DNA of 54,595 nt from Minisyncoccota bacterium (GCA_041658985.1 JBAZZC010000005.1:1-54595), one strand, 5' to 3'. Positions 25,149-41,384 are shown, counted from the first letter of the stretch. Notes: generated by a model not told the origin, from the letters alone. Numbers and translations: made by a program.

Positions 25149-25694
25149 CTATTTGAACAAGTCTTTAAAAACAGGAAGTAGTTTGTCTTTATCTGATAAA
25201 ATTGGTTCGGATATCGGCCAATTTATCGCTAAATCTCGGTCGTTGTAAATAATTCCCTGCTCACTTTCTGGAAAATAATAATCATTAACCTTATATACAA
25301 TCTTAACTGTATCAGAAAGAGCACAAAAACCATGAGCGAAACCTTTTGGTATAAACAACATTTTATGATTATCACCAGAGAGAATTTCTGAAACCCATTT
25401 CCCAAAAGTTGGAGAGTTAGGTCGAACATCAACTGCCACATCTAATATTTCACCACTTATACAACTAACAAGTTTTACCGTCTCATGAGGTGCTTTAGAA
25501 AAATGCATACCCCGTATTACTCCCTTTTTGGAAAAAGAAAAATTATCTTGAACAAAGTTTTCTTTTATTCCCGCTTCTTCAAAATCCTTTTTGTTATATG
25601 TCTCAATAAAATATCCACGACTATCTTCAAAGACTTTCGGTTCAATTAAAATTACACCTGGTATTGTCAATGGAGTAAAATTAAATTTGTTCAT
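25149..25694 (-). CDS. rfbC: dTDP-4-dehydrorhamnose 3,5-epimerase
   Basis: Signatures are IEPKVFEDSRGYFIETY, VQDNFSFSKKGVIRGMHF, KLVSCISGEILDVAVDVR and LFIPKGFAHGF. Confidence 0.9.
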   Translation of the reverse strand: MNKFNFTPLTIPGVILIEPKVFEDSRGYFIETYNKKDFEEAGIKENFVQDNFSFSKKGVIRGMHFSKAPHETVKLVSCISGEILDVAVDVRPNSPTFGKWVSEILSGDNHKMLFIPKGFAHGFCALSDTVKIVYKVNDYYFPESEQGIIYNDRDLAINWPISEPILSDKDKLLPVFKDLFK

Positions 25695-25795
25695 CCCGTA
25701 CGAAATAAAGGCTATTTTTTCACCTTTGTTTATTATTAACTATAATTTACTAATTTCTTTCCCGTAAGACAAACAACATAAATTTCGTACGGGAT
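25693..25795 (-). mobile_element. ORF-less element of about 103 bp, CCCGTACGAA inverted-repeat family (copy M2), co-oriented with the minus-strand operon
   Basis: atcccgtacgaaat (25693-25706) pairs with atttcgtacgggat (25782-25795). Its reverse complement aligns with copy M1: aaggtgaaaaaata[g/c]cctttayttcgtacgggATG. The rfbC ATG (25694-25692) lies at the element end. Confidence 0.7.
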
Positions 25796-25878
25796 CAATA
25801 TCAATGATTATATCACACTAAATAAATTGAAATAACAACTAAGCAATACCAATTTATTATGATATTATATTACTTAAT

Positions 25879-26967
25879 ATGAGTAATGATAGCAAAAAAC
25901 ACTTACCAAACGTCACTTTAATTACTTTTGATTGTGTAAAACTAAAACAAACAAAAATAGCTGCTGATATATGCCAAAAAGAATTTTCTTTCGGTGCAGT
26001 TAAAATTCTCTCTTCAATTCCAGACAGTGACCCACGAGTAATCCCTGTCCCAGAATTATTAAACGATTGGCAAAAGTATTCCGAATTTTATATTAGAGAA
26101 TTTGCTAAACATGTTGAAACCGAATTTGCTCTTTGTTTTCATCCAGATGGCTTTATATTAAACCCCTCTGCTTGGACAGATGAATTCTTAAAATATGATT
26201 ATATCGGAGCACCTTGGTACCATTTTGGAAAAGCTATGGTTGGTGGTGGGGGCTTCAGTCTTCGTAGCAAAAGACTTTTAGATTATATTTCAAATAATTA
26301 CAAAAAGATTGGTGGAGAATTTCATCCAGAAGATTATTGGGTTTGTAGGGTAGCTAGACCGTTCTTAGAGAAAGAAGGAATGAAATTTGCTCCAGAAGAA
26401 CTTGCTTTACGCTGGAGTAAAGAAGGTGGTTTGCGTGGTGTATTTTGGGATGGAGAATTCGGTTGGCATGGGCAAAATTATACAGATATTTCTAAGTGGC
26501 TTAATAACAATCCAGAATACAAGGACATTTTTCCACAAAAATTTGATGATTTCACAACATTCATGCTTAAATACCCAGTTTATGATGGAACTGTTCATGT
26601 CCTTCAATGTAAACCAATACAAGTAGAACATTATAAAATACTCTCGATGGGAGAAAAAAATTATGATTGCCGAATCGATAATGACCTTTTAGGATTACCT
26701 GAAATAAAACCAGGTCATAAAATAGTTTATAAACTTTTTAGAATTTCTTTAGAAAAAGTTGGGGTTCCAACATTTGAACGAACTGTAAAAAATGTTGAAA
26801 AGTTTTCATCAAAAAAAGAACTTCTACACGCATATCCAAAAATCAAAATTGCCCCCACGTTTCATTTACCAAAATGGAAACAACGTCTAATTGCTATTTT
26901 TGGTAATATTATCTTTCCAAATGATAAACCATATACCCTGATTTGGTTTGAAGCTAAAAATAACTGA
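25879..26967 (+). CDS. DUF5672-like putative glycosyltransferase with an extra C-terminal domain
   Basis: The N-terminal half shows the pattern VTLITFDC...FGAVKILSS...YSEFYIREFAKHVETEFALCFHPDGFILNPSAWTDEFLKYDYIGAPW. Confidence 0.45.
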   Translation: MSNDSKKHLPNVTLITFDCVKLKQTKIAADICQKEFSFGAVKILSSIPDSDPRVIPVPELLNDWQKYSEFYIREFAKHVETEFALCFHPDGFILNPSAWTDEFLKYDYIGAPWYHFGKAMVGGGGFSLRSKRLLDYISNNYKKIGGEFHPEDYWVCRVARPFLEKEGMKFAPEELALRWSKEGGLRGVFWDGEFGWHGQNYTDISKWLNNNPEYKDIFPQKFDDFTTFMLKYPVYDGTVHVLQCKPIQVEHYKILSMGEKNYDCRIDNDLLGLPEIKPGHKIVYKLFRISLEKVGVPTFERTVKNVEKFSSKKELLHAYPKIKIAPTFHLPKWKQRLIAIFGNIIFPNDKPYTLIWFEAKNN

Positions 26968-39618: not shown

Positions 39619-39898
39619 ATCCCGTACGAAATGCATAGTATGTTTTACACATATATACTAAAAAGCAAGAAAAATGGTAGGCTATACACTGGATATACAG
39701 AAAACCTACGGAAACGCCTAAGCGAACATAATAGCGGGAAATCTATATATACCAAGAACAGAGGCTTATATGAACTTATTTATTATGAAGCATGCACAGA
39801 ACAAACAGATGCAAGGTCGAGAGAATTATATCTTAAATCGGGAAAAGGCAAGCGATACCTCAAAACTCGCTTAAAGCGTTTCCTATTTCGTACGGGAT
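39619..39898 (+). mobile_element. GIY-YIG cassette G2: 280-bp unit bounded by ATCCCGTACGAAAT / ATTTCGTACGGGAT
   Basis: The left arm is 39619-39632 and the right arm 39885-39898, a perfect 14-bp inverted repeat. ATGAA is present on both sides (39615-39619 and 39897-39901). Confidence 0.75.
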
Positions 39899-39900
39899 GA
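39631..39900 (+). CDS. GIY-YIG nuclease-family protein (89 aa), copy 2
   Basis: Differs from copy 1 at 7 of 89 residues and keeps the canonical LSEHNSGKS motif. Its TGA overlaps the ATG of the next gene (ATGA). Confidence 0.85.
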   Translation: MHSMFYTYILKSKKNGRLYTGYTENLRKRLSEHNSGKSIYTKNRGLYELIYYEACTEQTDARSRELYLKSGKGKRYLKTRLKRFLFRTG

Positions 39901-41384
39901 ACCAAATTAGACAAAACCTTGAAAACTCTAAACTGCAACATGAAGAAGCTTGGCACAAAGGCTACGATGAGTTTAGTAAAATCATAAACCCTCGAAACTT
40001 CAAGGTTGGAGCAGAAATTGGAGTTGCTTATGGGGGTCACTGTGAGGCTATGTTGAAAAATACAAAAATAGAGAAATTGTATGGTGTTGATCCATATGAG
40101 CACCGAGAAAGCTATGTTGATGACTCTATGAATCTTCCACAAAAAGAGTTCGACGAACTTTTTAAAATGACAAAAGAAAGGCTTTCACCTTTCAGTAAGC
40201 GTTACGAACATATAAGAAAATGCTCAAAAGATGCTGTCGGAAACATTTCAGAACAACTTGATTTTATCTATATAGATGCTGACCATTCATATGAAGGAGT
40301 GTGGACTGATTTATGTGCTTGGTTTTTAAAAATAAAAGACGGTGGAATCATTGGTGGTCATGATTATATGAATCCGTATTTTCCTGGAGTGCAGAAAGCA
40401 GTTGATGAATTTTTCAGAAGATTTAATTGGAAAATAAATTTTGATAAAGAAAATATGATGTGGTGGGTTGAAAAGAAGTCCTTACATATAAGTTTTTTTA
40501 TTCCGGCATTCAATTGCGAGGAAACAGTAACCGAATCACTCTATTCCATTATCAGCACTAACCTTGAAGAAGGAGATGAAATTGTTATAACCAACGATGG
40601 CTCAACCGATAATACGGCAAAAATACTACAAGAATTTGCCGATAAATATTCATATGTAAAAATACTTACACACACTAGAAACAAAGGAGGGGCAACGGCT
40701 AGAAATACGGCGATTGAAAATACAAAAAATGAAATTCTTTTCTGTCTGGATTCGGATAATATTCTTCTTCCAAATTCTATAGAGCCCTTAAAAAGACTTT
40801 TACTAGAAAAGGGTGCTGATTGTGTAGCATTTCAGGGAACCTATTATTTTGTAAATGACACAAAAGAAATATATAAAAAATTGAATTTCCTGTTTGATGA
40901 AGTAACTCTAGAGAGGACTCTGGGAAATAATTCTTCCTCTCCGATTGGAATGGGAAATTATATGTTTACAAAAAATAGCTGGAATAGAGCCGGTGGCTAC
41001 CCTGACGGAAACTGGATCGATACGTGGGGTTTTGGCATAAGACAGTTATTCTCTGGAACAAAGATGTACATTTTACCAAACTCATTTTACTTCCATAGAC
41101 GAGGCCATGTGTCATATACTGTAAGAGAAGCTAAAGAGGGAAAAACCTCCTTGACCGCTCTCCAGTTGCTTCTACCATATTTTGAATTCTTATCTAAAAG
41201 AAGTATTCGATACGTTATGGGAAGAGGAAAATACACGTGGTTTGAAAATTTGGATAAGAAACCTCTCAAACTGGCCAAATCAAGACATGGTCTTCAAAGC
41301 ACGCAAAATAAAATAAAAAGGTCAATAAAAAAGACCTTTCCATTTTTTTACAAAAAATATATACAGATAAGGTATGGAAAATAA
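39897..41384 (+). CDS. Bifunctional fusion: class I SAM methyltransferase (Methyltransf_24-like) N-domain + GT2 glycosyltransferase C-domain
   Basis: The N-terminal domain carries GAEIGVAYGGHCEAML and IYIDADHSYEGVWTDL...GGIIGGHDY. The C-terminal domain carries ISFFIPAFNCEETV, ITNDGSTDNT, NKGGATARN and FCLDSDN. Confidence 0.75.
   Translation: MNQIRQNLENSKLQHEEAWHKGYDEFSKIINPRNFKVGAEIGVAYGGHCEAMLKNTKIEKLYGVDPYEHRESYVDDSMNLPQKEFDELFKMTKERLSPFSKRYEHIRKCSKDAVGNISEQLDFIYIDADHSYEGVWTDLCAWFLKIKDGGIIGGHDYMNPYFPGVQKAVDEFFRRFNWKINFDKENMMWWVEKKSLHISFFIPAFNCEETVTESLYSIISTNLEEGDEIVITNDGSTDNTAKILQEFADKYSYVKILTHTRNKGGATARNTAIENTKNEILFCLDSDNILLPNSIEPLKRLLLEKGADCVAFQGTYYFVNDTKEIYKKLNFLFDEVTLERTLGNNSSSPIGMGNYMFTKNSWNRAGGYPDGNWIDTWGFGIRQLFSGTKMYILPNSFYFHRRGHVSYTVREAKEGKTSLTALQLLLPYFEFLSKRSIRYVMGRGKYTWFENLDKKPLKLAKSRHGLQSTQNKIKRSIKKTFPFFYKKYIQIRYGK

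Follow-up and report, generated by a model that had tools for sequence, protein, structure and literature searches.

Probable transposition of very small GIY-YIG nuclease-encoding elements into start codons of Patescibacteria

Ssn nucleases are single-domain GIY-YIG enzymes of about 94 amino acids that, on one strand of single-stranded DNA (ssDNA), bind hairpin repeats called NTS/SRM and cut just upstream of them (PMC11893778). In 42% of the Ssn homologues, the gene is flanked by NTS/SRM repeats on both sides, and the authors who described this (Chenal et al., Nat Commun 2025) remarked that the architecture of the Ssn gene looks like that of an insertion sequence; their paper reports no insertion site and nowhere uses the terms 'duplication', 'start codon' or 'Patescibacteria' (PMC11893778). 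The DNA analysed here, referred to below as the window, is a stretch of 54 595 nucleotides from a Minisyncoccota bacterium (GCA_041658985.1, JBAZZC010000005.1:1-54595), a polysaccharide-biosynthesis region with 34% G+C. It carries four repeats bounded by common 13-nt inverted arms: two of 278 bp (G1 and G2), each with an open reading frame (ORF) for a GIY-YIG nuclease of 86 amino acids, and two of about 100 bp (M1 and M2) with no ORF. We propose, with a probability of about 0.7, that all four belong to one family of very small transposable elements, common in ultra-small Patescibacteria, that insert at start codons.

The window protein is 40% identical (BLASTP 5e-14) to a GIY-YIG protein of Azospirillum flanked by CGTCATCCCCGCGAAGGCGGGGATCCAG hairpins, which closely match the published NTS consensus (PMC11893778). 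At a locus of the Azospirillum lipoferum plasmid AZO_p3 (255118-256145; L250, fetched loci being given L numbers), a GIY-YIG gene for 97 aa is situated between sufB and sufC, flanked by two inverted hairpin pairs closely matching the same consensus, and looks like an insertion inside a proteobacterial operon. The NTS-type junction of TCA with TCCC is the reverse complement of the junction of GGGA with TGA found in the window elements. Like Ssn, the window elements have a single-domain GIY-YIG protein of about 90 amino acids with intact catalytic motifs (in G1 with the change H30Y), its gene lying between inverted hairpin-forming repeats that also exist as many gene-less copies and that adjoin genes, rarely being inside them. 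Unlike Ssn, where local hairpins of about 28 nt stand on each side, they have one long-range pair of 13-nt arms, and the family differs further by its 4-bp duplication, start-codon targeting, fixed orientation, radiation of subfamilies of MITEs (miniature inverted-repeat transposable elements) and Patescibacteria hosts. The nuclease would, by its sequence, be a relative of Ssn and a putative member of the family defined by CDD cd10448 and SsnA of N. meningitidis.

The boundaries of the elements were drawn as TCCCG...CGGGA. G1 and G2 are 93% identical over aligned regions of 321 nt that include short flanks, and M1 and M2 are 81% identical. The arms TCCCGTACGAAAT / ATTTCGTACGGGA are common to all four, and their core CCCGTACGAA occurs 10 times in the window with at most one mismatch, where shuffled sequences predict 0.93 occurrences (maximum 3). 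All four elements terminate in ...CGTACGGGATGA (GGGATGA), the ATG there being the start codon of the next ORF, at 35937, 37214 and 39897 on the plus strand and at 25694 on the minus strand. On the left, the flank is ATGAAT for G1 (35655), M1 (37108) and G2 (39615), and ATTGAT for M2. At M2, the rebuilt start codon takes its A from the final base of the element, and the right copy of the duplication reads TGAA. This junction pattern has overwhelming statistical support and, from the sequences compared, appears to reflect transposition.

The original prediction had listed these element positions, the ends in GGG-ATG-A and the left flanks of G1, M1 and G2, all of which proved correct. It had also placed the four elements at gene boundaries, co-oriented with transcription; the ATG does begin the next ORF in each case, but M2 sits in a divergent promoter region and not between co-directional genes. 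Its description of G2, in which the left ATGA gives the stop of the GT4 gene (ORF 38284-39618) and the right ATGA the start of the downstream gene, was confirmed, G2 being the only window element whose left TGA is the real stop of the upstream gene. The ORF upstream of G1, which codes for a methyltransferase, stops at TAG 35651-35653, one base ahead of the ATGAA. Both neighbouring ORFs were supposed to be preserved: this holds for the downstream ORF but not for the upstream one at M1, where ORF 35937-37133 now reads 7 codons into the element.

A genome collection was scanned with the 14-mer ATTTCGTACGGGAT, corresponding to one arm. Most matches were due to chance; 12 loci, all from Patescibacteria (Nomurabacteria, Saccharibacteria and others), proved real. 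At these loci the arm is always followed by G, giving ATG, and the five bases on the left equal the five on the right in 10 of the 12, with a sequence that varies between loci (ATGAA, ATGAG, ATGGA). A scan of metagenomes, in which both arms were required and the flanks left free, gave at least 117 loci, holding 97 unique copies of 74-102 bp. A flanking repeat of 3-5 bp is present in 78 of the 97 unique metagenome copies listed: 69 have a perfect 4-bp repeat, compared with about 0.4 expected by chance, five have a 5-bp and four a 3-bp repeat, and in the remaining 19 it is decayed or absent. The 69 perfect repeats are TGAA (35), TGGA (21), TGTA (6), TGAG (2), TAAA (2), TGCA (1), TAGA (1) and CGAA (1). 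The base preceding the left copy (-5) is A in 62 of 64 copies and, taken together with it, the duplications covary between copies as ATGAA, ATGGA, ATGAG, ATGTA and ATGCA. In four informative copies with a base other than A at -5, the right end is still ...GGGA, so that the terminal A belongs to the element and the duplication is of 4 bp.

The flanking repeats are therefore true target-site duplications, as had been supposed from the window, given that they covary between copies. Single-copy empty sites had likewise been predicted. When the flanks were joined in silico and searched in the fetched DNA, seven homologous empty sites were found, each with one ATGNA that is the start of the same gene. 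An 81%-identical orthologue of the gene after G2 also begins at the same position, with no element upstream; the gene preceding this orthologue is a different one, so it confirms only the right junction of G2. No empty site was found for M1, the look-up of the epimerase gene giving only contigs of the same strain with M1 present. Where the repeats at gene starts are imperfect (for example M2, L010, L015, L151 and L257), it is the left copy that deviates, and the gene-proximal right copy retains the ATG; decay confined to the left copy fits a left copy without function.

The short forms, of which more than 100 gene-less copies were found, measure 36-120 bp and retain the arms but not the gene. 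The family has the features by which MITEs are recognized, namely terminal inverted repeats, target duplication, a single copy of the target at empty sites and a coding partner with the same ends. Some of the short forms share a sub-terminal TTTCCTATTTCG, beside the arms, with the full forms G1, G2, L240, L252 and L257. Minimal versions of 36 nt (L230, about 7067-7103; L180, about 6622-6658) consist of two arms around a 10-nt GC-rich loop (TCCCGTACGAAATCGCGAACGCGATTTCGTACGGGA) and resemble the local NTS-type hairpins of Proteobacteria. An apparent unit of 586 bp in L228 turned out to be two separate MITEs, and the presence of P0025 on 24 contigs was ruled out as a recent spread, all contigs representing the same locus.

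Insertion can also affect the gene upstream. In L163 (about 5700-5830), compared with L020 (about 510-650), the target ATGAG lies within an overlap of about 20 nt between two genes, and the insertion swapped the last residues of the upstream protein from ..DELPPR to ..DESRTKLM; the same has happened at M1 in the window. The two cases indicate that C-termini encoded upstream can be reshaped by the elements.

The target is the start codon plus two bases, and not specifically an ATGA stop/start overlap. An ORF of 60 codons or more begins at 98 of 109 unique sites, compared with 25% of 6848 background ATG[AGT]A sites from the same DNA (p 1e-45). In addition, 77 of the 109 are start-like, with a stop in frame no more than 15 codons upstream, which is true of 6% of the background (p 3e-64). 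True ATGA overlaps account for only 11 of 105 sites, and at 35 of the 105 no co-directional gene ends within 120 nt upstream. The orientation relative to the downstream gene is the same in all 74 copies with recognizable relatives, and a k-mer test gave 463:56. The junction pattern seen in the window extends far beyond it. To our knowledge, no other mobile element targets start codons and rebuilds them.

A TANNNT box of the -10 type ends 5-8 nt before the ATG in 37 of 62 targets, the figure being 26% for other gene starts and 8% for random positions, and a common layout at the targets is TGnTATAAT, 6 nt, then ATG. This suggests, as far as can be read from the sequence, that many targets are leaderless-type starts; the -10 box of the gene targeted by M2 would likewise be a leaderless-type promoter. 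No Shine-Dalgarno enrichment was detected, the motif being present at 3 of 38 window genes and 9 of 64 targets, against 14% of random positions, and near the rebuilt ATG within the elements it is absent (2 of 64). In the window and in loci L121-L237, where many gene starts follow a -10 box at a distance of 6-7 nt, leaderless mRNAs appear to be common.

The position at start codons could instead be due to survivorship only, with insertion at any TGRA or ATGRA and survival, in gene-dense genomes, of the copies that restore a start. The strong specificity of the target (A-T-G-[AGT]-A) would suit this explanation, as would the terminal A, which makes an ATG from any TG.. duplication; a few non-start copies with a base other than A at -5 do exist (L141, L214, L220), and intragenic insertions would be lethal or costly. 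We nevertheless regard it as unlikely. Intergenic TGDA and ATGDA sites outnumber start sites 11:1 and 2:1, respectively, yet about 90% of the copies are at starts. If only intragenic insertions were purged, the expected share at start codons would be about 8% (TGDA, 4-bp target) or 32% (ATGDA, 5-bp target), and the observed value implies either a preference for start sites at insertion or strong selection against the other intergenic sites. Moreover, the orientation is absolute although the arms are symmetric and either orientation would restore the ATG, and the targets are richer in a -10 box just upstream than other gene starts.

The only Pfam match of the 86-aa protein is PF01541 (GIY-YIG); it has a single domain and no further one. 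The G2 protein has at least 1717 homologue clusters, and the counts that follow are those for the best 120 of these, with 72-93% identity, from sources named as Nomurabacteria, Pacebacteria, Parcubacteria, Ryanbacteria and Wildermuthbacteria. Exactly 86 residues are found in 73 of them, and in 82 the C-terminus is FLFRTG, encoded by the right arm. Longer homologues either start with MNPVRN, that is the left ATGAA and left arm, or run on as ...RTGW, as expected from a TGGA duplication. The motifs YTY, YTG, RKR, H30, E50 and RE are conserved in at least 95% of 121 sequences. The G1 protein carries a Tyr at the conserved His30 (codon 35767-35769) and differs from G2 at five more residues; judged by the change at His30, G1 is probably an inactive copy.

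Every full-form copy examined is flanked by arms, and the fetched DNA, about 1.8 Mb, showed no other protein gene enclosed by them. Among full-form ORFs, 95 of 106 stop at a TGA overlapping the rebuilt ATG, against 37 of 65 MITE duplications that begin with TGA, which suggests selection for the TGA/ATG overlap. Besides the window copies, there are full forms that precede a short-chain dehydrogenase gene, that separate a peptidase gene from rplI or that separate thyA from folA, each with a 4-nt TGA/ATG overlap. Other arms, ACCCTGTTAAAT/ATTTAACAGGGT and TCCTGTAGTAGAA/TTTCACTACGGGA, enclose the more divergent GIY-YIG genes (47-50% identity) of L196 (about 5020-5310) and L128 (about 2790-3190, identical with L138). 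The L128 copy occupies the same ATGAA, immediately after a MITE, and GC-rich hairpin repeats interrupt its ORF.

These observations bear on the possibility that the short elements were moved in trans by a conventional transposase, for example of the DDE type, the GIY-YIG gene being a passenger or homing gene in one MITE lineage. Inverted repeats with a short duplication are a hallmark of DDE transposition, and GIY-YIG enzymes are hydrolases without known transposase activity. Such an origin is decidedly unlikely, however: in the same 1.8 Mb or so of DNA carrying the elements, neither a larger unit with these arms nor a transposase gene was found, the nuclease ORF forms part of the right arm in no fewer than 82 of the 120 homologues, diverged nucleases have different arms, and a strict orientation would be unexpected for a symmetric DDE synapse. 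Ssn relatives, moreover, specifically bind their own flanking hairpins (PMC11893778).

The search pattern left arm positions 12 and 13 free. Position 12 pairs in 97 of 97 copies and position 13 in 94 of 97, with A-T, G-C and C-G variants, and pairing ends at position 14; this covariation fits pairing in DNA or RNA, or shared recognition by a protein. On folding, the arms close the whole element, and RNAalifold recovers only this outer stem. For G2 folded as ssDNA the arms again close the whole element (z -4.2), and M1 folded as RNA gives -29.5 kcal/mol (z -2.3), with an inner hairpin AAGG..CCTT just 5' of the right arm. The subfamilies differ widely in internal sequence; what they retain, on inspection by eye, is an inner hairpin ahead of the right arm and, in the interior, a partial right-arm copy. 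In several MITE subfamilies (for example M2, at 25760-25768; L147, L121, L190), the partial copy, ..ACGGGA.., follows the left arm by 20-35 nt; pairing between the two could free the right arm and the ATG. Some subfamilies have a -10-like box near the right end. A translational relay running from the decoy stop to the nuclease ATG and on to the TGA and host ATG was considered and rejected as a general feature: its first step is found in G2 (TAGTATG) and is absent from G1, L240, L252 and L257, and in MITEs the decoy ORF stops at variable distances.

The arms might, as the original prediction also considered, act at the RNA level, and this might be their primary role: they would pair in the mRNA leader to regulate, process or couple translation of the downstream gene, with the repeats kept as cis-regulatory modules and not as selfish DNA. 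The 13-bp stem and its perfect covariation at positions 12-13 would agree with this, as would the inner hairpin and the partial right-arm copy able to compete for the left arm, the orientation fixed relative to transcription, and the TGATAGAAT that the 79-nt subfamily has 10 nt before the ATG. We find a primary RNA role very unlikely, given that duplications, empty sites and the embedded nuclease gene show insertion to be the origin, that internal sequences vary widely with only the outer stem recovered, that the Rfam search found nothing except two tRNAs, and that a DNA hairpin, or recognition of both ends by a single protein, would lead one to expect the same covariation. The idea, put forward in the original prediction, that the element specifically targets the 4-5-bp ATGA(A) overlap of coupled genes and is expressed by operon read-through fits G2, which lies exactly in such an overlap, the full-form copies at thyA/folA and at the peptidase gene and rplI, and the 90% of full-form ORFs that end at a TGA overlapping the next ATG, but it is largely refuted as a general rule and highly improbable, not only because of the site counts given above but also because the 21 TGGA and 6 TGTA among the 69 duplications contain no stop, and G1, M1 and M2 are themselves not overlaps.

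Transposition into start codons, which we favour, could proceed as follows. The full form consists of two perfect 13-nt inverted arms around one gene for the 86-residue GIY-YIG nuclease, which would be the mobility enzyme. The comparisons show that insertion duplicates 4 bp (occasionally 3 or 5) of consensus TG[A/G/T]A, which in about 95% of cases follows an A and belongs to the start codon of a gene; the terminal A of the element and the right TG.. copy restore the ATG and leave the gene intact, and the original ATG stays behind as a decoy, free to decay. As with Ssn, the nuclease may act on one strand of ssDNA in which the arms are folded as a stem, reading the adjacent short flank, and such one-strand recognition of folded arms and flank would fix the orientation. 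A fixed orientation is compatible with strand-specific ssDNA cleavage of the Ssn type. Start codons may be favoured as many targets lie 6-7 nt downstream of a -10 box, where open complexes, or else replication, would expose ATGRA as ssDNA, and intragenic insertions would be removed by purifying selection. With no Shine-Dalgarno signal, parting the ATG from the DNA upstream would cost little. More tentatively, the family might represent an unrecognized class of prokaryotic transposon, in which the sole protein is an 86-aa GIY-YIG single-strand nuclease homing to start codons, by preference those of leaderless genes, through the ATGRA of open complexes, and in which host translation is preserved by the terminal A that restores the ATG and by the TGA stop overlapping it.

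Several points weigh against this scenario. Movement is deduced from sequence comparison, and the occupied and empty sites compared come from different species with flanks only 75-82% identical. The background gene starts were taken from a crude ORF caller, which inflates the apparent -10 enrichment. Open complexes cannot explain all targets, G1, G2 and M1 being internal to operons and without a promoter; for these another source of ssDNA would be needed, for example replication. The decoy ORF of a MITE ends 20-60 nt short of the real ATG, without fixed coupling, a difficulty as regards translation of the host gene behind it. We know of no strand-transfer chemistry in GIY-YIG hydrolases, so that host repair or ligation would be required for insertion; nor is a stagger of 4 nt typical of characterized GIY-YIG enzymes. 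Finally, the similarity to UPF0213 proteins (YazA 41% identity; PDB 1zg2, E 5e-7) is about equal to that with the Azospirillum protein, which makes membership in Ssn uncertain. UPF0213, YhbQ and YazA proteins (PDB 1zg2, 1ywl) have a similar size and belong to a similar fold family; they are single-copy proteins of unknown function, and we know of no description of flanking arms or mobility for them.

Other known elements share some of these properties. Like the Correia elements of Neisseria, the short forms are of about 100 bp, have terminal inverted repeats and a short duplication, occur in many copies at the 5' ends of genes, are co-transcribed and in some cases carry promoter-like sequences. 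The duplication made by Correia elements is TA, and their presumed origin lies in DDE insertion sequences, whereas the only coding relative of the window family is a GIY-YIG nuclease, its target is ATG[AGT]A at starts and its orientation is absolute. Elements of the IS200/IS605 and REP/RAYT types resemble it by their hairpin ends, tiny single-protein organization, oriented insertion directed by a short sequence and proliferation of non-coding derivatives. They use HUH/Y1 transposases and make no target duplication; in contrast, the only ORF of the window element is of GIY-YIG type and a 4-bp duplication is present, so that oriented insertion is a resemblance in behaviour only. With homing endonucleases (phage Seg, I-TevI), the family has in common the GIY-YIG catalytic domain, the location between genes and selfish spread. 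Free-standing GIY-YIG homing endonucleases have added DNA-binding domains and long sites and spread to the same locus by homologous repair; the window protein, unlike these, has 86 residues and no extra domain, dozens of unrelated genes are targeted, and there are arms and a duplication. The literature covered by our full-text searches contains no account of an inverted-repeat element that encodes a GIY-YIG protein and duplicates its target at start codons.

Table 1. Coordinates of the four elements of the window, with their arms, ORFs and target copies.
Feature	Position	Strand	Basis or context
M2, 101-bp ORF-less MITE	25694..25794	-	directly upstream of dTDP-4-dehydrorhamnose 3,5-epimerase gene
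M2 arms	left 25782-25794 (on minus strand), right 25694-25706	-	
M2 rebuilt start codon + 2 nt, ATGAA	25690..25694	-	starts ORF 25149-25694 (PF00908)
M2 decayed left target copy, ATTGA for ATGAA	25795..25799	-	decay of the left copy only, as in L010, L015 and L257
Extended -10 box TGATATAAT	25807..25815	-	7 nt upstream of the original, now decayed start of the M2 target
G1 left target copy ATGAA (original start, now decoy)	35655..35659	+	1 nt past methyltransferase TAG stop
G1, 278-bp element	35660..35937	+	93% identical to G2 with short flanks included
G1 arms	35660-35672 (TCCCGTACAAAAT, 1 mismatch), 35925-35937 (ATTTCGTACGGGA)	+	
G1 GIY-YIG ORF, 86 aa	35680..35940	+	PF01541, E 1.2e-14; TGA stop overlaps ATG of next gene
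G1 rebuilt ATGAA	35937..35941	+	start of glycoside-hydrolase-like gene 35937-37133
M1 left target copy ATGAA	37108..37112	+	within 3' end of ORF 35937-37133
M1, 102-bp MITE	37113..37214	+	arms 37113-37125 (TCCCGTACGAAGT), 37202-37214 (ACTTCGTACGGGA)
M1 rebuilt ATGAA	37214..37218	+	start of UDP-GlcNAc 2-epimerase gene 37214-38287 (PF02350)
G2 left target copy ATGAA	39615..39619	+	its TGA is the stop of GT4 gene 38284-39618
G2, 278-bp element	39620..39897	+	arms 39620-39632 (TCCCGTACGAAAT), 39885-39897 (ATTTCGTACGGGA)
G2 GIY-YIG ORF, 86 aa	39640..39900	+	E 2.9e-16; matches family consensus
G2 rebuilt ATGAA	39897..39901	+	start of methyltransferase/GT2 gene 39897-41384

The features of the four window elements are collected in table 1. 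M2 falls in a subfamily of about 100 nt, and its orientation matches that of its relatives. The nuclease ORF of G2 runs with its last codons (FRTG) into the right arm and stops at a TGA that overlaps the following gene's ATG. An isolated exact half-arm, CCCGTACGAA, at 33674-33683 on the minus strand was not retained as an element; it lies inside ORF 32697-34460, has no partner arm and no ATG, and is probably a chance match.

If the proposed reading is true, GIY-YIG nucleases of the Ssn kind would join the short list of enzymes that move prokaryotic DNA, and an element of 278 bp would make directly testable the question raised in 2025, whether units of Ssn and hairpins are insertion sequences. 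The family may explain a large share of the Patescibacteria proteins annotated as 'GIY-YIG nuclease family protein' or 'excinuclease ABC subunit C' (more than 1700 clusters). It would also call for caution in annotation, given the decoy ATGs, the short N- and C-terminal extensions of ORFs and the altered C-termini of upstream genes. The elements would in turn mark true start codons and leaderless promoters in organisms not yet grown alone, and the pairs of nuclease and arms could extend the toolbox of sequence-specific ssDNA cutters.

The window contains other repeats. Near-perfect palindromes of 19-21 nt, TTAGACAAAAAAGTGCG / CGCACTTTTTTGTCTAA, are present at 15873-15912, 16520-16563, 20698-20737 and 15438-15466, just 3' of minus-strand genes, and look like a repeated family of terminator-type hairpins. 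A perfect inverted repeat of 18 nt, TAAGACTCCTAAATCTAG, is found at 9522-9539 and 9703-9720, with its arms 163 nt apart.

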